Origin: Escherichia coli
GTDB taxonomy: Bacteria; Pseudomonadota; Gammaproteobacteria; Enterobacterales; Enterobacteriaceae
Assembly: GCF_051903065.1 (NCBI RefSeq)
Contig: NZ_CP178438.1
Direction: 5' to 3' (one strand)
Length of the DNA stretch: 64,000 bases
The position numbers and the translations under genes are program-made. Position 1 is the first letter of the stretch. Each line of letters starts with the position of its first letter. The notes beneath the pieces are model-generated. The model searched no databases. It was not told the origin of the DNA and worked only from the letters and a program-made list of their open reading frames with translations. Positions 2,629 through 64,000 of the stretch are shown here, piece by piece.

Positions 2629-8180
<5,552 letters not shown>

Positions 8181-54363: not shown

Positions 54364-55104
54364 TCAGAAGTTATAAGTCACACCAAGCATGATGTCATGA
54401 CTTTTAACATCAACCTCTGATTTATATTTATCGCCCCACTCATCCTTGTAACTCACACTGCTGTCACCTGCATCAATATAGCGATAGCTGAGGTCAAGAG
54501 CGATATCCGGGGTTACGTCATAACGGACACCAGCCCCAAGGCTCCATGCAAAGTTGTCAGCAGAGTCTGAGTGTGACAACGACTCACGCCCACTGTACCC
54601 GTACCCATAATCCCAGGTACTGATACCAGTTGTTTTCTGATGAATTCTGGCGTAACCAATCCCTGCGGATACCCATGGTGTGAATGCACTGTCGTTCCGG
54701 AAGTCATAGTACGTATTCAGCATCAGAGTGTTGACTGACACTTCATTCTTCAGGTCATCACGCCAGTAACCACCTGACCAGCTGTCTTTATCTACGTTAT
54801 ACTTCGAATCAGCTTTTCCACGCGCGTAAAACTCCAGTTCTGTACGAACCGGAATACTGAACTGCGGATAAAAATCATAACCGGCCGCAATACCGCCACT
54901 GAATACCGTATCATGGTCATCGCCGCCTTTATACTTTGACGTTTCTTCCTCATCTCCTGACAGGAAACGCTGGTCTGAAAGTGACACCACAGAGGCACCG
55001 GCTTTACCGGTCAGATAAAAACCGCTTTTACCTTCCTCAGCACCTGCATTTGCTGCAAATACACAGGCTGCGGCCACCACTGAAACAGCAAAAACCTTTT
55101 TCAT
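54364..55104 (-). CDS. outer membrane beta-barrel protein (OmpA-like transmembrane domain family)
   Basis: 246-aa ORF with signal peptide MKKVFAVSVVAAACVFAANAGA, alternating aromatic/hydrophobic beta-strand pattern and C-terminal ...GVTYNF. Confidence 0.7.
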   Translation of the reverse strand: MKKVFAVSVVAAACVFAANAGAEEGKSGFYLTGKAGASVVSLSDQRFLSGDEEETSKYKGGDDHDTVFSGGIAAGYDFYPQFSIPVRTELEFYARGKADSKYNVDKDSWSGGYWRDDLKNEVSVNTLMLNTYYDFRNDSAFTPWVSAGIGYARIHQKTTGISTWDYGYGYSGRESLSHSDSADNFAWSLGAGVRYDVTPDIALDLSYRYIDAGDSSVSYKDEWGDKYKSEVDVKSHDIMLGVTYNF

Positions 55105-55455
55105 TTCAATTATCTCCGTTATTGCTCCGTTGCTGCAAGCAGTACTCAGTGCATTTTAAAACCCGCCATGCGATAGTCTCAATTGAATAAAATCGATCTA
55201 ATCGATAGATGATATCGATCGTCATTAACCAGAAATTTTTATCGTATTCAGTCAGCACAGATACAACAAATGCATGCCATGCAGACAGTCATACCCGGCA
55301 ACAACAGCAGATGGTTGCTGAGCAAGCAGGGAGTGAGGCTGAATCCCGGGGAAGAAAAAACCTGTAAAATTTGTTTATTCTGCCAGGAGATAAAAGTGAC
55401 GTGTGTTCATGTAACACACCAGGGACGAAAGATGCATGGACTGACAGTTTGGGGG

Positions 55456-56512
55456 GGCTTTGTTGAATAAATCGAACTTTTGCTGAGTTGAAGGATCAGA
55501 TCACGCATCCTCCCGACAACACAGACCATTCCGTGGCAAAGCAAAAGTTCAGAATCACCAACTGGTCCACCTACAACAAAGCTCTCATCAACCGTGGCTC
55601 CCTCACTTTCTGGCTGGATGATGAAGCGATTCAGGCCTGGTATGAGTCGGCAACGCCTTCATCACGAGGAAGGCCCCAGCGCTATTCTGATCTCGCCATC
55701 ACCACCGTTCTGGTGATTAAACGCGTATTCCGGCTGACCCTGCGGGCTGCGCAGGGTTTTATTGATTCCATTTTTGCCCTGATGAACGTTCCGTTGCGCT
55801 GCCCGGATTACACCAGTGTCAGTAAGCGGGCAAAGTCGGTTAATGTCAGTTTCAAAACGTCCACCCGGGGTGAAATCGCACACCTGGTGATTGATTCCAC
55901 CGGGCTGAAGGTCTTTGGTGAAGGCGAATGGAAAGTCAGAAAGCACGGCAAAGAGCGCCGTCGTATCTGGCGAAAGTTGCATCTTGCTGTTGACAGCAAC
56001 ACACATGAAGTTGTCTGTGCAGACCTGTCGCTGAATAACGTCACGGACTCAGAAGCCTTCCCGGGCCTTATCCGGCAGACTCACAGAAAAATCAGGGCAG
56101 CCGCGGCAGACGGGGCTTACGATACCCGGCTCTGTCACGATGAACTGCGCCGCAAAAAAATCAGCGCGCTTATTCCTCCCCGAAAAGGAGCAGGTTACTG
56201 GCCCGGTGAGTACGCAGACCGCAACCGTGCCGTTGCTAATCAGCGGCTGAGCGGAAGCAATGCACGGTGGAAATGGACAACGGAATATAACCGTCGCTCG
56301 ATAGCGGAAACGGCAATGTACAGAATGAAGCAGTTGTTGGGAGATTCACTGACGCTGCGTGACTACGATGGTCAGGTAGCGGAAGCTATGGCCATGGTGC
56401 GTGCGTTGAACAGGATGACAAAGGCTGGGATGCCAGAAAGCGTGCGTATTGCCTGAAAATCCAGCCAGCTACAGGGTCGTTCGCACGAAATCTTATTTAT
56501 TCAACAAAGCCC
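55456..56512 (+). mobile_element. IS903-group insertion sequence (IS5 family), about 1057 bp
   Basis: Left end ggctttgttgaataaatcgaacttttgctgagttgaaggatcag and inverted right end ...tcttatttattcaacaaagcc; single transposase ORF; no flanking 9-bp direct repeat. Confidence 0.85.
55533..56456 (+). CDS. IS903-type transposase (DDE)
   Basis: ORF VAKQKFRITNWSTYNKALINRGSLTFWLDDEAIQAWYE...; start placed at in-frame GTG to give 307 aa (tool ORF begins at TTG 55488). Confidence 0.85.
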   Translation: MAKQKFRITNWSTYNKALINRGSLTFWLDDEAIQAWYESATPSSRGRPQRYSDLAITTVLVIKRVFRLTLRAAQGFIDSIFALMNVPLRCPDYTSVSKRAKSVNVSFKTSTRGEIAHLVIDSTGLKVFGEGEWKVRKHGKERRRIWRKLHLAVDSNTHEVVCADLSLNNVTDSEAFPGLIRQTHRKIRAAAADGAYDTRLCHDELRRKKISALIPPRKGAGYWPGEYADRNRAVANQRLSGSNARWKWTTEYNRRSIAETAMYRMKQLLGDSLTLRDYDGQVAEAMAMVRALNRMTKAGMPESVRIA

Positions 56513-57624
56513 ATACCCCTCTGAAAATCAGTCATCAACTCACCAACACATCTTCTGAAATCTGTATTAAACTTATTGCTTAAATAGATGATATAACACA
56601 TCTTCCATTGCACGGAATCAGCGAAAACTGTCATTCTGGCAATCTTAACAAGATCATTTATCGGTTAATTTTATCAGTAAACAATGGAATATCACACTGA
56701 TAAAATGAACATTCAGGGTAAGATGATAAAATTCACATAAAAAATGCTGAAGATTATTTATTTCATGCAGATAAACGATAAAATACAAGAGAGTATATTT
56801 TTCAGTGTAAGAGTCAATCGTTCATCTCCACTGACGATCACGGTCAGCACATAAACAAAGTGAGTCCTCCTGCTTAGTCATTGCGTATCAGAAACTAAAA
56901 AACAAAAGATTCTGTAAACAACGTGACATTTTTTATGACATTTCCCGAATACAGATATATCAACAAACAGTAGTCAGCGTTGAATTAATAAGTTTTACAG
57001 GGCTATACGTATCTTATAAAACCACTCAACGACCATCATCACCTGACTATTTAGCGGGAGTATCATCTGTATAAATTCCTAAATAATAACACCTGTTATT
57101 AAAATAAGAATGCTGTCAGCAGTAAATTATTAACATAACACCTGTCCACTCTATCTGTTCTTCTAACTCAACCGGCATCGAAAATATTGCCTGATTAGTG
57201 CATCATAGCCTTCTTTTTTCTTTCCCGACCATCAAAACAAATACAACATTTACAACCACACAATAAAACAAAACTAAAACAAAACTAAAACATAAGATTA
57301 ACAACACCAATCAACAGGAAAACACTGAATATTGAGGTGCCCTGTAACCTGGAGAGCGCATACGGCGCATGTGATCAACACAGCCCATTCTTTTCTGTCA
57401 TCCCCCAAATGCAGAACAAACAAGCATAACCTAATGAATATAAAATAAAATATTATTTTTCACCATCATAAAAACATCAATGTATCTTTATATAAAAACA
57501 CTGATAACATGACATAAACATTTAAAAACATAAACAAATCACAACAAAAACATTTGATAATCACTTAGTGACAAAATAAAATTGAGACGATTTTGTTATA
57601 AGAGAGGCGCCATGGAGTGAGATA

Positions 57625-58695: not shown

Positions 58696-58731
58696 ATCCC
58701 CCGCCACCTTTCCGGTGCGCGGGGTTTTGTC
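58696..58731 (+). terminator. putative rho-independent terminator downstream of the 339-aa ORF
   Basis: GC-rich inverted repeat ccccgc...gcgggg followed by ttttgtctttttt. Confidence 0.45.
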
Positions 58732-58753
58732 TTTTTTCACCGGGAATACATGT

Positions 58754-59581
58754 ATGAATCCGTCTGATGCCATTGAGGCAATTGAAAAACCGCTCTCCTC
58801 CCTGCCTTACTCACTTTCCCGTCACATCCTGGAACATCTGCGCAAACTCACCAGCCACGAACCCGTGATTGGCATTATGGGGAAAAGCGGGGCCGGTAAA
58901 TCCTCACTCTGTAATGCACTGTTTCAGGGGGAGGTCACCCCGGTCAGTGATGTTCACGCCGGCACCCGGGAAGTGCAGCGCTTCCGTCTGAGTGGCCATG
59001 GTCACAGCATGGTTATCACTGACCTGCCCGGGGTGGGCGAGAGCCGTGACAGGGATGCAGAGTATGAAGCCCTGTACCGTAACATTCTGCCTGAACTTGA
59101 CCTGGTACTGTGGCTGATTAAAGCCGATGACCGTGCCTTGTCTGTGGATGAGTATTTCTGGCGACACATTCTGCACCGGGGACATCAGCAGGTGCTGTTT
59201 GTGGTGACGCAGGCCGATAAAACGGAGCCCTGCCATGAATGGGATATGGCCGGTATTCAGCCTTCTCCCGCACAGGCACAGAACATTCGCGAAAAAACGG
59301 AGGCGGTATTCCGTCTGTTCCGGCCCGTACATCCGGTTGTGGCCGTATCGGCTCGCACCGGCTGGGAACTGGATACGCTGGTCAGTGCGCTCATGACAGC
59401 GCTTCCCGACCATGCCGCCAGTCCCCTGATGACCCGCCTGCAGGACGAGCTGCGCACGGAATCTGTCCGCGCTCAGGCCCGTGAACAGTTTACCGGTGCG
59501 GTGGACCGGATATTTGACACGGCGGAGAGCGTCTGTATTGCCTCTGTTGCCCGCGCGGTATGGAACTGGATTTTCTTCTGA
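58754..59581 (+). CDS. YfjP/YeeP/YkfA-family small GTPase (prophage-like island backbone GTPase)
   Basis: P-loop GIMGKSGAGKSSLCNALF, G3 DLPGVGE, G4-like TQADK, C-terminal ...ARAVWNWIFF resembling K-12 YfjP/YkfA from memory; start at ATG 58754 (tool ORF starts at GTG 58715). Confidence 0.8.
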   Translation: MNPSDAIEAIEKPLSSLPYSLSRHILEHLRKLTSHEPVIGIMGKSGAGKSSLCNALFQGEVTPVSDVHAGTREVQRFRLSGHGHSMVITDLPGVGESRDRDAEYEALYRNILPELDLVLWLIKADDRALSVDEYFWRHILHRGHQQVLFVVTQADKTEPCHEWDMAGIQPSPAQAQNIREKTEAVFRLFRPVHPVVAVSARTGWELDTLVSALMTALPDHAASPLMTRLQDELRTESVRAQAREQFTGAVDRIFDTAESVCIASVARAVWNWIFF

Positions 59582-59701
59582 ACCCGGTGGTGATGCACCA
59601 GACTCTTGTTACAGATTTTTAACTCCATGAAAACACAATGCAAACGCAGCCATACCCGGGTTGTCCCCTTGTGTTGTGTTTTCCAGATTAATAGAATGCA
59701 T

Positions 59702-59720
59702 CGATCGTTATAAACGATCG
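59702..59720. promoter_or_regulatory. perfect inverted repeat (cgatcgtt-ata-aacgatcg) about 60 bp upstream of the dynamin-like gene
   Basis: 8-bp arms with 3-bp spacer in the 200-bp gap between the two GTPase genes; candidate operator. Confidence 0.3.
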
Positions 59721-59780
59721 TTTGTGGTAAATGACCTCCTCCGTGGTTGTCATGAAAATGCGTCTCAGGAAGGTTAAATA

Positions 59781-62165
59781 ATGCACGAAAAGAACATCGC
59801 CCTGCTTTGTGATGAAGCCGACCGACTTTTGCAACTGAACATTAATCTGCTCCGGCAAATGGTTGATGAACCGGATGTGTTATCTGACAGTAAGAACGAA
59901 AACAGACTGCTTTTCGATAAACAGAAAGCACTGAAAAGAATTGAGGAGCTGGAGGGCGAACAAATCAAAACCGCCCGCAGGGAGATGGTGCTGGCTGTTG
60001 TCGGCACGATGAAAGCAGGTAAATCAACTACCATCAACGCCATTGTGGGGCAGGAAATTCTGCCTAACCGTAACCGCCCCATGACCTCTGTACCGACGCT
60101 CATCCGCCACGTTCCCGGAAAAACTGAGCCGGTCCTCCATCTGGAACATATTCAGCCCGTCCGCAATTTATTAAGCACACTGCAACAAAAACTCGACACC
60201 CCGGCAGGACAGCAAGTCGCACAGACCCTGCAGCAAACCGGGGATACCTGCGAACTGCTGGATATTCTGGCAAATGATGGCTGGCTCAAAAATGAATACC
60301 ACGGGGAGGAGGAAATCTTTACCGGACTGGCATCGTTAAACGATCTGGTTCGCCTTGCTGCGGCAATGGGGAGTGAGTTTCCTTTTGATGAATACGCAGA
60401 AGTGCAGAAACTGCCGGTGATCGACGTGGAATTCAGCCATCTGGTGGGGATGGATGCATGCCAGGGAACACTCACACTGCTGGATACCCCCGGCCCTAAT
60501 GAGGCCGGACAACCGCAGATGGAAGTGATGATGCGGGATCAACTGCAGAAAGCCTCTGCGGTGCTGGCGGTGATGGATTACACCCAGATGAACTCAAAAG
60601 CGGATGAAGACGTCCGTAAAGAGCTTAATGCCATTGCTGACGTATCAGCCGGCCGCCTGTTTGTGCTGGTCAATAAATTTGATGAGAAAGACCGCAATGG
60701 CGATGGGGCAGATGCCGTACGCCAGAAAGTTCCGGCAATGCTGAACAGTGATGTGCTGCCCGCCTCCCGCGTTTATCCAGGCTCATCACGTCAGGCGTAC
60801 CTGGCTAACCGTGCGCTTCATGAGTTACGGAAAAACGGAACCCTTCCTGTTGATGAAGCCTGGGTCGATGATTTTGTCAGGGAAGCCTTCGGTCGCATGA
60901 AAAAAGAATACGTCTGTAAAGACAGTGAAATGGCAACCGAAGGGGCGACAGACCTGTGGGAAGGTTCACTTATCGATCAACTGATAACGGAAGTCATACA
61001 GAGCTCCCATTCCAGAGCGGCGGCACTGGCGGTTGATTCTGCCGCCGCAAAACTGATGCAGAATGCGGAAAATGTCAGCGAATATCTGTCATTACGCCAT
61101 CAGGGGCTACAGCAAAGCATTCAGTCACTGCAGGCGCATATCTCCAGCCTGCTGGCGGATATCCGGGAAATCGCGGACTGTCAGGAGCAGGTGACCGCAG
61201 ATGTCAGAATGGCTATGGAGGAGATCGATACTAAAACCCGGGAATTACTGACGGGGGTCTGCACCTCACTGGAAGAGGAGCTGAATGACTATTTCAGAAG
61301 CGGTAAACGCAAAGAACAGCAAATGCTGGAGGAAGAAAATTCAGCGCAGCCCCGGGAGAGAAACGCATTCGCTTTCTTTCACGATATTTTCGGAACCGGA
61401 AATCAGCATGACAGGATGCGGGACTTTGATCCGGACAGCCCCGAAATAAAATTCAGTGATCGCAGGGAAGCCCTTGAACTGATGACGCAAATCGAATCGA
61501 CCGTGACCAGCCTGCACCGTGAGGCTGAAGCACAGTTCCGTCCTGAACTGGAAAAAATCGTCAGGGGTATTGAAACAGGTTTTCGTGGTACGGCCCTGTA
61601 CGCCACAGAAAATATTGCCGGACGCATCAATGCCCGTCTGGAGGATGAAGGTTTCACTGTAAAAATCAGTTTTCCGGCAGTCAGCCAGTTACAGACCCGG
61701 CTCGCAGTAAAAACAAATCTGAGCGCGCTTATGGAGGAAAGAACGGAGACCGTCACTCGTCGCTGTCGACAGGATGGTGTCTGGGGTACGCTTTGTCGAT
61801 GGGCAAACACCAGTGACTGGGGCTGGAAAGAGTACAGTGTGGATGTGAGCCGCAGCGTGATCAATATCAACAAGGTCAGAGAGGAAGTGATGTCACTGAC
61901 CCGGGCATATTTCGGGGAGCTGCAGGCATCCATTGAGCAGGATATTAACCAGCCCGTCCGCCAGGAAATCGATGCCTTTTTCTGCGCATTCAGGGAGAAA
62001 GTTGAACAACTGCGTAACACGCTGATTCAGAGCTCTGAAGATCGTAAACGCGATCAGCAGGCGCAGGAACGGCTTACCGGGCGACTTCAGGCATTAAATG
62101 AAAGGGTTCCTGAGCTCATTACTGACAGTAAGGCGCTGAGGGAAGAGCTGGAGACAATGCTGTGA
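59781..62165 (+). CDS. bacterial dynamin-like large GTPase
   Basis: 794-aa ORF; G1 VVGTMKAGKSTTINAIVG (res 73-90), G3 LLDTPGPNE, G4 VLVNKFDEKD, followed by about 500 aa of helical/coiled-coil stalk-like sequence; RBS caggaagg 7 nt upstream. Confidence 0.8.
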   Translation: MHEKNIALLCDEADRLLQLNINLLRQMVDEPDVLSDSKNENRLLFDKQKALKRIEELEGEQIKTARREMVLAVVGTMKAGKSTTINAIVGQEILPNRNRPMTSVPTLIRHVPGKTEPVLHLEHIQPVRNLLSTLQQKLDTPAGQQVAQTLQQTGDTCELLDILANDGWLKNEYHGEEEIFTGLASLNDLVRLAAAMGSEFPFDEYAEVQKLPVIDVEFSHLVGMDACQGTLTLLDTPGPNEAGQPQMEVMMRDQLQKASAVLAVMDYTQMNSKADEDVRKELNAIADVSAGRLFVLVNKFDEKDRNGDGADAVRQKVPAMLNSDVLPASRVYPGSSRQAYLANRALHELRKNGTLPVDEAWVDDFVREAFGRMKKEYVCKDSEMATEGATDLWEGSLIDQLITEVIQSSHSRAAALAVDSAAAKLMQNAENVSEYLSLRHQGLQQSIQSLQAHISSLLADIREIADCQEQVTADVRMAMEEIDTKTRELLTGVCTSLEEELNDYFRSGKRKEQQMLEEENSAQPRERNAFAFFHDIFGTGNQHDRMRDFDPDSPEIKFSDRREALELMTQIESTVTSLHREAEAQFRPELEKIVRGIETGFRGTALYATENIAGRINARLEDEGFTVKISFPAVSQLQTRLAVKTNLSALMEERTETVTRRCRQDGVWGTLCRWANTSDWGWKEYSVDVSRSVININKVREEVMSLTRAYFGELQASIEQDINQPVRQEIDAFFCAFREKVEQLRNTLIQSSEDRKRDQQAQERLTGRLQALNERVPELITDSKALREELETML

Positions 62166-63067
62166 CTTCACCATTTATTCAACAAATTGCTGATAACCGG
62201 GTATGTCAGGTACTCACCTGTCTTCCTGAAAAATTTGTGGTTGATTTCGCAAACGGAATCGATGTTGCACAGGAGCATATCCGCACGGCCGGAGAGCGCA
62301 CGTTCTTCCGGCGTTTAAAAGAGGGGATGACCGGCGAAGGCGCTGCACGGCAGAATGCCATCAATGCTTCGCTTGCACAGGGCGTTGAGGCGTCCCTGCG
62401 CTGGCTGACGGAGCTGACAACGTCACTTGCCACCACAAACTACGCGATTACCCGGGTAAACGACAGGGTCAGTTCACTGGTCAGTGATACTGCCAGGCTG
62501 GCGCATTATTCGGCTGACACGCGGGAGCAGTTACTCACCCTGGCCGATCAGGTTCACCAGAAACTGAATCATCTTGAAGAAAAACTCCACCGTGTTGACC
62601 AGGTTCAGCGGGCGCAGTTACATCTTGAGCAGATATTCTCATGGTGGAGCGCCGGGCGATATGCGTCATTTTCCCCTGCCGGACGTTGTTATGTGGCACT
62701 TGAAGAGCTTCGCTGGGGCGCGTTTGGTGATGTGATACGCCAGGGCGAAACAGGCCAGGTTAACCAGCTACTGGATATTCTCAGACATAAAGCATTAACG
62801 CAGATGGCACAGGAGAGTGGCGGTAGTGCAACCGTGCGTCTGAACACTCTGGACTGGCTTGGTGGTCAGGGCCGGGAGCAGGCAGATAACGAGTGGCATG
62901 ACGCGATTAACTGGCTGGGGGACTGGTGCAGTGAAGAGCAGCATCCGGTGATCTGGTCAACCACGCAGGCTGCAGAACACTTACCGGTTCGCATGCCTCG
63001 CCTCTGCTCTGCAGAACGCCTCTCTGAAAGTATGGTCGATGAAATATTTCAGAAGGGGGCAGCATGA
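62162..63067 (+). CDS. hypothetical protein of unknown function, translationally coupled to flanking genes
   Basis: 301-aa ORF whose GTG start overlaps the upstream stop (GTGA) and whose stop overlaps the downstream ATG (ATGA); predicted helical middle region. Confidence 0.55.
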   Translation: MTSPFIQQIADNRVCQVLTCLPEKFVVDFANGIDVAQEHIRTAGERTFFRRLKEGMTGEGAARQNAINASLAQGVEASLRWLTELTTSLATTNYAITRVNDRVSSLVSDTARLAHYSADTREQLLTLADQVHQKLNHLEEKLHRVDQVQRAQLHLEQIFSWWSAGRYASFSPAGRCYVALEELRWGAFGDVIRQGETGQVNQLLDILRHKALTQMAQESGGSATVRLNTLDWLGGQGREQADNEWHDAINWLGDWCSEEQHPVIWSTTQAAEHLPVRMPRLCSAERLSESMVDEIFQKGAA

Positions 63068-64000
63068 GTACAGAAATGAAAACGGGGCTGGTGCTGTCCG
63101 GCGGCGGGGCGGTGGGCGCTTATCAGGCAGGTGTGGTTAAGGCACTGGCAGAGTGTGGCACACAGATCAGCATGGTTTCAGGGGCCAGCATTGGCGCATT
63201 CAATGGTGCCATTATCGCGGCCTCTCCCGATCTGTCAGAAGCAGCCGCACGCCTGGAGGCGCTCTGGAAGCATCTGGGGAATAATCAGGTGCTGTCGGTA
63301 AACCGATCGGTTTACTTTTCATTGCTGAAAAAAATGGTTCAGGCCATGAACCTCTGCCAGATCCCCGGACGTGCAGGAGCACTGCTTACGACACTTCTTC
63401 GCCATATATCGATAATCAACGGCTTCGACAATCCGATGGCTCAGCCGCTGTTGTCAGATGAGCCTCTGACAGCGCTGTTGGATCATTATCTTGATACTGA
63501 TGCTCTGGCAGACGGGCTACCGCTGTATGTGTCGCTGTACCCCACAGAAGGGGGCATGCAGGATATTATTGACTGCATTCGTGCTGAACTGGGTGCCGGA
63601 ACCACGAAAAACGCCGTTTTTCAGCATATCCAGAGCCTGCCCCGCGGACAGCAGAAAGAGGCTCTGCTTGCGTCAGCCGCGCTGCCCCTGCTGTTCCGTC
63701 CCCGTGAGGTTCAGGGGACAATGTTCGGTGATGGTGGTATGGGAGGATGGCGAAATATGCAGGGAAATACCCCTGTGACGCCTCTGGTCGATGCCGGATG
63801 CAATATGGTGATTGTGACGCATCTGAGTGACGGTTCTTTATGGGATCGCCAGGCTTTTCCGGACACCACAATCCTTGAGATCCGTCCCCGGAAAAGGCTG
63901 AAATATGCAGGTGATGGTGGCAACAGCGGCGGTCTGCTCAGTTTCACGTTGGCACATACCGACGCCTGGCGTCAGCAGGGCTATGAAGACACGATGCTGA
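63064..64000 (+). CDS. patatin-like phospholipase (3' end beyond window)
   Basis: Oxyanion-hole GGGAVGAY, catalytic Ser in GASIG (GxSxG) and catalytic Asp in FGDGGM (DGG) in the correct order and spacing; ORF is open to the window end. Confidence 0.8.
   Translation, partial: MSTEMKTGLVLSGGGAVGAYQAGVVKALAECGTQISMVSGASIGAFNGAIIAASPDLSEAAARLEALWKHLGNNQVLSVNRSVYFSLLKKMVQAMNLCQIPGRAGALLTTLLRHISIINGFDNPMAQPLLSDEPLTALLDHYLDTDALADGLPLYVSLYPTEGGMQDIIDCIRAELGAGTTKNAVFQHIQSLPRGQQKEALLASAALPLLFRPREVQGTMFGDGGMGGWRNMQGNTPVTPLVDAGCNMVIVTHLSDGSLWDRQAFPDTTILEIRPRKRLKYAGDGGNSGGLLSFTLAHTDAWRQQGYEDTML

Follow-up and report, generated by a model that had tools for sequence, protein, structure and literature searches.

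Comparison with the agn43 phase variation region suggests that the palindrome CGATCGTT-ATA-AACGATCG, located at positions 59702-59720 of the window (the whole 64,000-nucleotide stretch of Escherichia coli DNA analyzed here), is probably half-site C of an agn43-type Dam/OxyR switch, and that the allele carried by this strain is a natural loss-of-switch variant, probably derepressed. On sequence grounds, the locus was classified as an agn43-type Dam/OxyR switch with a new cargo, and the window as a natural deletion allele of this switch in which the full OxyR site is no longer found. The regulation predicted for the locus, by analogy with agn43, is heritable ON/OFF phase variation, rather than ordinary repression or activation.

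Sequence context of the palindrome

The palindrome is composed of two perfect 8-bp arms separated by a 3-bp spacer, and the arms are not extendable because the t at 59701 faces another t at 59721. As the original prediction had described, the repeat is exact and lies about 60 bp ahead of the dynamin ATG at 59781 (60 bp beyond the palindrome end), within an intergenic gap reported as 200 bp and measured here, from the GTPase stop at 59581 to the ATG, as 199 bp. The exact pattern occurs once in the window (0.00 in 100 dinucleotide-preserving shuffles). A search for perfect 8-bp inverted repeats with spacers of 0-6 bp yielded 35 matches at some 23 places, against 2-6 in mononucleotide shuffles. 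The palindrome alone constitutes weak evidence, because such repeats are not rare as a class in the window, and its evidential weight comes from homology and conservation. Each arm contains one GATC, the Dam methylation site, a feature that the original prediction had overlooked. The first spans 59703-59706 and the second 59716-59719, starting 13 bp further on, the same spacing observed in the GATC-II/GATC-III pair of agn43 and in the GATC pairs of gtr half-sites (PMC2909390).

The gene order around the palindrome was derived from Pfam and from the RefSeq annotation of the 100%-identical genome GDSC2BY4G. Ahead of the gap it comprises a tRNA-Leu, an integrase, genes for a phosphoethanolamine transferase and an outer-membrane protein on the minus strand, an IS5, a hypothetical gene and a YeeP-type GTPase gene. 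The latter, encoding a YeeP/YkfA-type small GTPase, corresponds to a 288-aa ORF on the plus strand (58715-59581; RefSeq start at ~58754), the 3' end of which is homologous to K-12 yeeP. The gap is followed by genes for a dynamin family protein, an RdcB/YjcZ-family protein and a patatin-like phospholipase, and by a hypothetical gene. The dynamin family gene (59781-62165, plus strand, 794 aa) is the first of the operon, is preceded by a Shine-Dalgarno sequence (AGGAAGG, 59767-59773, plus strand) 7 nt before its ATG, and encodes a product with 34% identity to K-12 RdcA (YjdA/CrfC). The start of the YjcZ/RdcB-family gene (62162-63067, plus strand, 301 aa, 30% identity to K-12 RdcB) overlaps the dynamin stop, and that of the patatin-like phospholipase gene (63064-64000, plus strand, identified from the annotation of the identical locus) overlaps in turn the preceding stop. 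The dynamin and RdcB-like ORFs are complete in the window, and the patatin-like gene runs off its end. The element hence occupies the setting typical of agn43-type switches, directly 3' of a yeeP-family GTPase gene in an integrase-bearing island at a tRNA-Leu.

The intergenic gap had been considered otherwise unremarkable, a description at odds with the presence in it of a -10 hexamer and a start-site region homologous to those of the agn43 promoter. The predicted -10 hexamer (TAGAAT, 59692-59697, plus strand) is part of the sequence TAATAGAAT, which is identical in K-12 agn43, in the Citrobacter loci described below and in eight of the nine full-length dynamin-type alleles sampled, the exception being CE2050 (TAATAGTAT). 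A candidate -35 element (TTGTGT, 59669-59674, plus strand), inferred from sequence, lies at a 17-bp spacer from TAGAAT. The agn43 -35 hexamer, TTGTCC, is also present at 59661-59666, but 25 bp rather than 17 bp from TAGAAT. A generic sigma-70 promoter scan detected no promoter in the region, as may be expected from an inferred -35 that is weak (3/6 match only), and the promoter is hence predicted by homology only. The annotated start of K-12 isrC is the G of GATC-I, 6 nt past TAGAAT, and the spacing in the window is equal. This homology places the predicted start at G59703, and therefore the palindrome at -1 to +18. The element thus lies at promoter distance, as had been proposed, but at about the predicted start site and not upstream of the promoter. 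An Rfam scan of 59000-60200 at E<=10 returned noise only and no IsrC-like match, which was to be expected because the homology to agn43 does not extend past GATC-III.

Homology to the agn43 switch

Comparison of the gap with the K-12 yeeP-isrC-flu (agn43) region outlined two conserved blocks separated by unalignable sequence, one at the 3' end of the GTPase gene and the other consisting of a short core. In the core, the window sequence AATAGAATgcATCGATCGTTataaaCGATCG aligns with K-12 AATAGAATaaaa…ATCGATCGTTtatatCGATCG, with the K-12 bases corresponding to the -10 hexamer and to GATC-II/GATC-III. Both sequences share TAATAGAAT, ATCGATCGTT and CGATCG, as well as the 13-bp spacing of the GATC pair.

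In agn43 (flu, in CP4-44), OxyR represses from a single site and methylation abrogates its binding; mutation of oxyR locks the switch ON, and mutation of dam locks it OFF (PMC2909390, PMC3764049). The agn43 locus resembles the one analyzed here in being located 3' of a yeeP-family GTPase gene, in its -10 region (TAATAGAAT) and in having the predicted start at the G of the first GATC. The full-length dynamin-type alleles described below further share with it the presence of three GATCs, a 13-bp GATC-II/GATC-III spacing and two half-sites scoring 8/10 against the OxyR consensus, one over the -10 and one over the GATC pair, with a core identity of 78%. The two loci differ in cargo, which is an autotransporter adhesin in agn43 and a cytoplasmic dynamin-like GTPase, an RdcB-like protein and a patatin-like phospholipase in the dynamin type, and in the length of the 5' UTR (a predicted 78 nt at the locus analyzed here and ~220 nt, comprising IsrC, in agn43). 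Upstream of the -10 and downstream of GATC-III, the two loci are unrelated in sequence. GATC-I and GATC-II are 18 bp apart in full-length dynamin-type alleles and 19 bp apart in agn43, and the offset between half-sites is therefore 31 bp instead of 32 bp. Unlike agn43, the full-length dynamin-type alleles also present an extra canonical 22-bp half-site pair scoring 16/20. Relative to the three-GATC switch of the agn43 type, the window allele lacks 18 bp and one GATC.

A scan with the switch-core pattern, using one genome per species, returned four matches, three of them relevant. In Escherichia albertii, an intact switch core precedes the same dynamin operon. In Citrobacter braakii and Citrobacter amalonaticus, a YeeP-like GTPase gene is followed by TAGAAT and three GATCs, and then by a different cargo. 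In C. braakii (locus L006, 4551-5160) this cargo consists of two small proteins with signal peptides (154 and 157 aa) and of genes encoding DUF932 and RadC proteins; the C. amalonaticus locus (L008, 900-1337) is short and ends inside the first homologous secreted protein. The small secreted proteins of Citrobacter could be assigned to no Pfam family, and their sequences matched neither IrmA nor any other PDB chain. The fourth match, in an Omnitrophota MAG, was rejected as due to chance, since it lacks TAGAAT and has an unrelated genomic context.

Identity in the 51-bp core ranges from 78 to 88% among dynamin-type, agn43-type and Citrobacter-type loci, and drops to 12-30% in the 60 bp upstream and 37-41% in the 60 bp downstream. 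This conserved core embedded between unalignable flanks provides the strongest computational argument for selection on the element in all three contexts.

Distribution of the full-length allele

Most E. coli matches to the region are longer than the window sequence. The MLI104K2 allele, for instance, reads TAGAATgcatcGATCgttactatcatatcGATCgctataaacGATCg and contains three GATCs that are collinear with the three GATCs of agn43. An 81-bp query taken from this allele matched 1,984 of the 5,426 complete E. coli genomes (~37%), including ST131, Nissle 1917, O104:H4 and APEC O18, and in 1,980 the match reached >=80% coverage. The three-GATC version precedes the dynamin-like/RdcB-like/patatin-like operon in both E. 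coli and E. albertii, and the conservation upstream of homologous operons that had been put forward as a check on the palindrome was hence borne out, with the element present in about 1,985 E. coli genomes and in E. albertii. A query with the K-12 agn43 core matched 2,180 genomes, indicating that the two types of switch are about equally widespread.

All GATCs are invariant in 12 sampled dynamin-type alleles, in which adjacent bases vary. Within this set, GATC invariance is a weak test because diversity is low (96% mean column identity), and it is the cross-family comparison that carries weight. The palindrome is perfect in most of the full-length alleles sampled, and a minority presents CGATCGCT in one arm.

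Several genomes present variations on this arrangement. In many strains, among them SK1144 (L009, 2930-3364), LS4 (L011) and the ST131 strain MB1159 (L017), the operon and an intact switch have as neighbours a TonB-dependent receptor gene and a GTPase remnant truncated to 145 aa, a setting that resembles the yoeA-yeeP region of K-12 CP4-44, as if the dynamin operon occupied the position of flu. In MLI104K2 (L004, 3456-6940) the switch is intact, but the annotation marks frameshifts in both the GTPase and the dynamin gene. Copies of the dynamin-type switch number ~2,200 in all, and some genomes have two or three. Resequencing of ATCC 25922 has reported 122, 75 and 10 'mutations' in crfC, rssA (patatin) and yeeP, respectively (PMC7696260, Table 3). 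These counts were rejected as evidence on regulation, since they most likely reflect the mis-mapping of reads among paralogous copies of the island operon.

Predicted OxyR half-sites and the 18-bp deletion

OxyR attaches to DNA as a dimer of dimers (PMC2909390, PMC4856963). Candidate sites were scored against the consensus for an OxyR dimer half-site, ATAGnTnnnAnCTAT, with individual half-sites graded out of 10 and pairs out of 20. For a half-site bearing a GATC in both arms 8/10 is the ceiling, because a perfect consensus destroys the GATC, and the functional half-sites of opvAB score 7-10/10 (PMC4856963). Every member of the family was found to contain two half-sites: half-site A over the -10 (ATAGAATnnAnCGAT, 8/10) and half-site C at the position of the palindrome (8/10). 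In the window, the OxyR-like half-site A (ATAGAATGCATCGAT, 8/10) spans 59691-59705, overlapping the -10 hexamer, and its position relative to the -10 is constant in agn43, in Citrobacter and in all dynamin-type alleles. The 15-bp half-site C (ATCGTTATAAACGAT, 59704-59718, 8/10) is contained in the palindrome, which is homologous to the GATC-II/GATC-III half-site of agn43. We are highly confident, from these alignments, that the palindrome represents an OxyR/Dam half-site homologous to that of agn43.

The original prediction had interpreted the palindrome as the operator of a dimeric regulator. The notion of a protein-binding operator element is retained as a prediction in the present analysis, but the element appears to be one of two OxyR half-sites rather than a stand-alone operator. 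The generic form of that interpretation, in which another dimeric regulator binds here and the resemblance to OxyR/Dam sites is incidental, is highly improbable: the perfect dyad with a 3-bp spacer does have the typical shape of a dimeric helix-turn-helix operator, yet the homology of the element with the OxyR/Dam site of agn43, which was defined by experiment, is base for base and keeps the register relative to the -10, the element matches all eight GATC-compatible positions of the OxyR consensus, and no regulator gene is encoded adjacent to it.

Intact and deleted alleles differ in the geometry of the two half-sites. In agn43 and in the two Citrobacter loci, half-sites A and C are offset by 32 bp and the best pair scores 16/20. 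This offset has been called canonical for reduced OxyR (PMC4856963); for agn43, the scores are 14/20 (22 bp) and 16/20 (32 bp). Full-length dynamin alleles present an A-C offset of 31 bp as well as an alternative B+C pair at the classical 22 bp, each scoring 16/20. Their departure from the 32 bp of agn43 counts against the proposed switch. In the deletion alleles, including the window, the A-C offset is 13 bp, the half-sites overlap by 2 bp, and pairs offset by 21-23 or 31-33 bp score at most 13/20. By these scores, a full tetramer site for OxyR, at an offset of ~22 or ~32 bp, is predicted in the full-length alleles and absent in the window allele. The predicted OxyR site over the promoter and start contains two GATCs in the window and three in the full-length alleles and agn43. 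Across the 64-kb window the background of OxyR scores is typically 4-6/20, with 14-15/20 attained at just two further positions. The remaining GATC clusters of the window are all contained in ORFs and score <=11/20 for OxyR.

The basis for this difference is an 18-bp deletion. Full-length alleles contain two copies of an 11-bp direct repeat, ATCGATCGTTA, located 18 bp apart, and the window contains a single copy (59700-59710) and exactly 18 bp less, with alignments placing the deletion junction inside the repeat. The loss removes one GATC and shortens half-site spacing from 31 to 13 bp. A 41-bp junction query identified the deletion allele in only five of the ~1,985 genomes with the locus. In GDSC2BY4G, NCTC9699 and 50EVA it is identical to the window allele, and the remaining carriers are ETEC6335 and AF39. 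The deletion is present in three versions on different SNP backgrounds, each of which is nearest to a different full-length allele, indicating that it probably arose more than once, though it is still rare. This distribution suggests a recurrent deletion that does not spread. The CGATCGCT arm of MLI104K2 raised the idea that the palindrome itself was created by the deletion, which was rejected because 547 genomes match exactly a 31-bp stretch bearing the palindrome within full-length alleles. In AF39 (L010, ~3480-3545), the 18-bp deletion is accompanied by a change in the -10 from TAGAAT to TAGAGT. Together with the frameshifts of MLI104K2, this change hints that expression of the operon may be costly, although the two cases are anecdotal.

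Proposed mechanism and alternative explanations

The ancestral switch would comprise, in this order, the -10 hexamer TAGAAT, a start at the G of GATC-I and three GATCs within two OxyR half-sites. In the OFF state, following the agn43 analogy, an OxyR tetramer bound to the unmethylated -10/+1 region would repress the operon and shield the GATCs from Dam. In the ON state, Dam would methylate the GATCs first, excluding OxyR and allowing transcription of the operon. Both states would be inherited, with switching at low frequency. In the window, deletion between the ATCGATCGTTA repeats would have removed one GATC and the half-site arm located between them, leaving half-sites A and C in a 13-bp arrangement, overlapping by 2 bp, that fits neither of the known OxyR geometries. 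Given this collapse in half-site spacing, binding of the tetramer is expected to be abolished or much weakened, and the operon to be constitutive or biased towards ON. It is known that opvAB becomes locked through small changes in its OxyR sites (PMC4856963), and that this switch is tuned by natural variants of its promoter (PMC12902445). What the sequence comparisons establish is the anatomy of the locus, its homology and conservation, the allele frequencies and the consensus scores; from these we infer OxyR binding, its sensitivity to methylation, the start of transcription, the existence of phase variation and the direction in which the deletion acts. The proposal that the palindrome implies a regulated rather than constitutive operon would hence apply to the species, and is probably reversed in this strain, where the 18-bp deletion broke the two-half-site geometry.

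We lean slightly towards derepression of the allele in this strain. Derepression is a prediction because both 8/10 half-sites and two GATCs survive, and a dimer at +1 or a distorted tetramer might still repress. The window allele could accordingly be a working switch, in which the palindromic half-site and two GATCs, perhaps with half-site A, suffice for function and the deletion only retunes switching rates. The surviving half-sites and GATCs lie over the -10/+1 region, where bound protein would block RNA polymerase, OxyR dimers may be able to bind half-sites independently (PMC4856963), and those operon genes that the window allows to be assessed are intact. The 13-bp offset with its 2-bp overlap, however, corresponds to neither geometry (22 or 32 bp), the best pair reaches 13/20 as compared to 16/20 in intact alleles, and OxyR has been described as a tetramer on DNA (PMC4856963). 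The allele is also very rare (5 of ~1,985 genomes), as would be expected if it were not functionally equivalent. A switch that still operates in this strain is thus considered unlikely.

An improbable alternative is that the palindrome acts as RNA, either as the intrinsic terminator of the GTPase gene or as a stabilizing hairpin at the 5' end of the dynamin mRNA. A terminator scan flagged the 8-bp stem, with four G-C pairs and a 3-nt loop, followed by TTTGTGGT; the predicted hairpin has a free energy of -10.5 kcal/mol (z = -2.0), and with a start at 59703 it would be placed at the very 5' end of the mRNA. Any DNA palindrome, however, also folds as RNA, and the element lies 120 nt past the GTPase stop codon. 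Its U-tract is poor (UUUGUGGU), and no such tract follows the homologous element of agn43 (CGATCGATAAGC) or of Citrobacter (CGATCGATATCT). Furthermore, the pairing partners differ between members, being GATC-II/GATC-III in agn43 and GATC-I/GATC-II in C. braakii, which argues that it is a DNA motif, and not one particular RNA helix, that has been conserved.

Relation to other OxyR/Dam systems and to core rdcA-rdcB

Like the dynamin-type locus, the gtr operons of Salmonella (P22/LT2) and opvAB contain OxyR half-sites with GATCs, and in gtr pairs of GATCs are located 13 bp apart inside one half-site, as they are in the palindrome; functional half-sites in these systems score 7-10/10, and alterations in them lock switching (PMC2909390, PMC4856963, PMC12902445). 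These systems use three or four half-sites upstream of the promoter, with alternative OxyR pairs and OxyR acting as activator or repressor. The dynamin-type locus instead presents, like agn43, a single site over the -10/+1 region and a predicted repressor-only mode of action, and it shares no sequence homology with gtr and opvAB beyond the OxyR/GATC motif.

The core rdcA-rdcB genes of K-12 (yjdA-yjcZ) encode a GTPase partner system of the diguanylate cyclase DgcE (PMC6510439). Their architecture is the same as that of the island genes, with a dynamin-like GTPase gene overlapping a YjcZ-family gene, and the encoded proteins are 34% and 30% identical to their island counterparts, sequence similarities by which we identify the island dynamin and RdcB-like proteins as distant paralogs of RdcA and RdcB. 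Unlike the island operon, the core pair lacks both a patatin gene and linkage to yeeP, and the 240 bp upstream of K-12 rdcA contain neither a GATC cluster nor a palindrome. PADLOC analysis of the operon proteins detected no known defence system, returning only weak partial matches to LeoBC (3.6e-05 and 2.9e-08, in the GTPase domain) and to a CBASS-type phospholipase (2.9e-05, over ~65 residues).

Implications

To our knowledge, Dam/OxyR phase variation in E. coli has essentially been confined to one locus, agn43 with the co-transcribed yeeR-irmA, and we know of no well-studied OxyR/Dam switch that controls anything other than surface structures. In the full-text literature, including methylome and OxyR/Dam studies and with subscription journals partly covered, the operon described here is not linked to Dam, OxyR or phase variation. 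As the closest precedent, irmA is repressed by OxyR only through its co-transcription with agn43 (PMC4807369).

A broader hypothesis, on which our assessment is evenly balanced, is that the agn43 switch constitutes a portable epigenetic cassette of 50 bp, which in CP4-type islands moves together with yeeP-family GTPase genes and controls different cargos. Under this hypothesis, the cassette would confer bistable, heritable expression on the dynamin/RdcB-like/patatin module in ~37% of complete E. coli genomes, and recurrent 18-bp slippage deletions between its own direct repeats would lock it, as in the window. The module, putatively involved in membrane remodelling from the cytoplasm, may feed into c-di-GMP/biofilm control or phage defence. 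Should the predicted switch operate in front of it, the operon would represent a second widespread epigenetically bistable locus in E. coli, present in ~2,000 of 5,426 complete genomes (among them ST131, Nissle 1917, O104:H4 and APEC). Population-averaged expression and mutant phenotypes of the operon would then depend on the colony picked, as has been shown for agn43 (PMC3764049). The switch would also provide a handle on the function of island-borne RdcA/RdcB paralogs, for which the window allele is predicted to be a ready-made natural 'switch-dead' control.

Additional candidate switches

Searches with the K-12 agn43 query also returned weaker, partial matches in EHEC genomes (H112-H115; O157:H7, O103 and others), covering 62-63% of the query at 84-86% identity. 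These may correspond to a further diverged type of switch located before other cargo.

The best matches to the 37-bp OxyR consensus in the window are not at the palindrome but at 55183-55228 (15/20 and 14/20). This ATCGAT-rich region contains GATCs at ~55195 and ~55217, and lies 80-125 bp upstream of the minus-strand outer-membrane protein gene (start at 55104), which is followed by the phosphoethanolamine transferase gene. An IS5-family element at about 55420-56620 (transposase ORF 55488-56456) separates the upstream region of the outer-membrane protein gene from the rest of the island. Island content beyond this element varies by strain, as some genomes share only the first 192 bp of that upstream region and the SLK172 locus has no annotated IS at this position. 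The 55183-55228 region was identified in 104 E. coli genomes, and in SLK172 the GATCs are 13 bp apart rather than 22. Its sequence suggests that it may be a second Dam/OxyR-type switch, directed at envelope-modifying genes.
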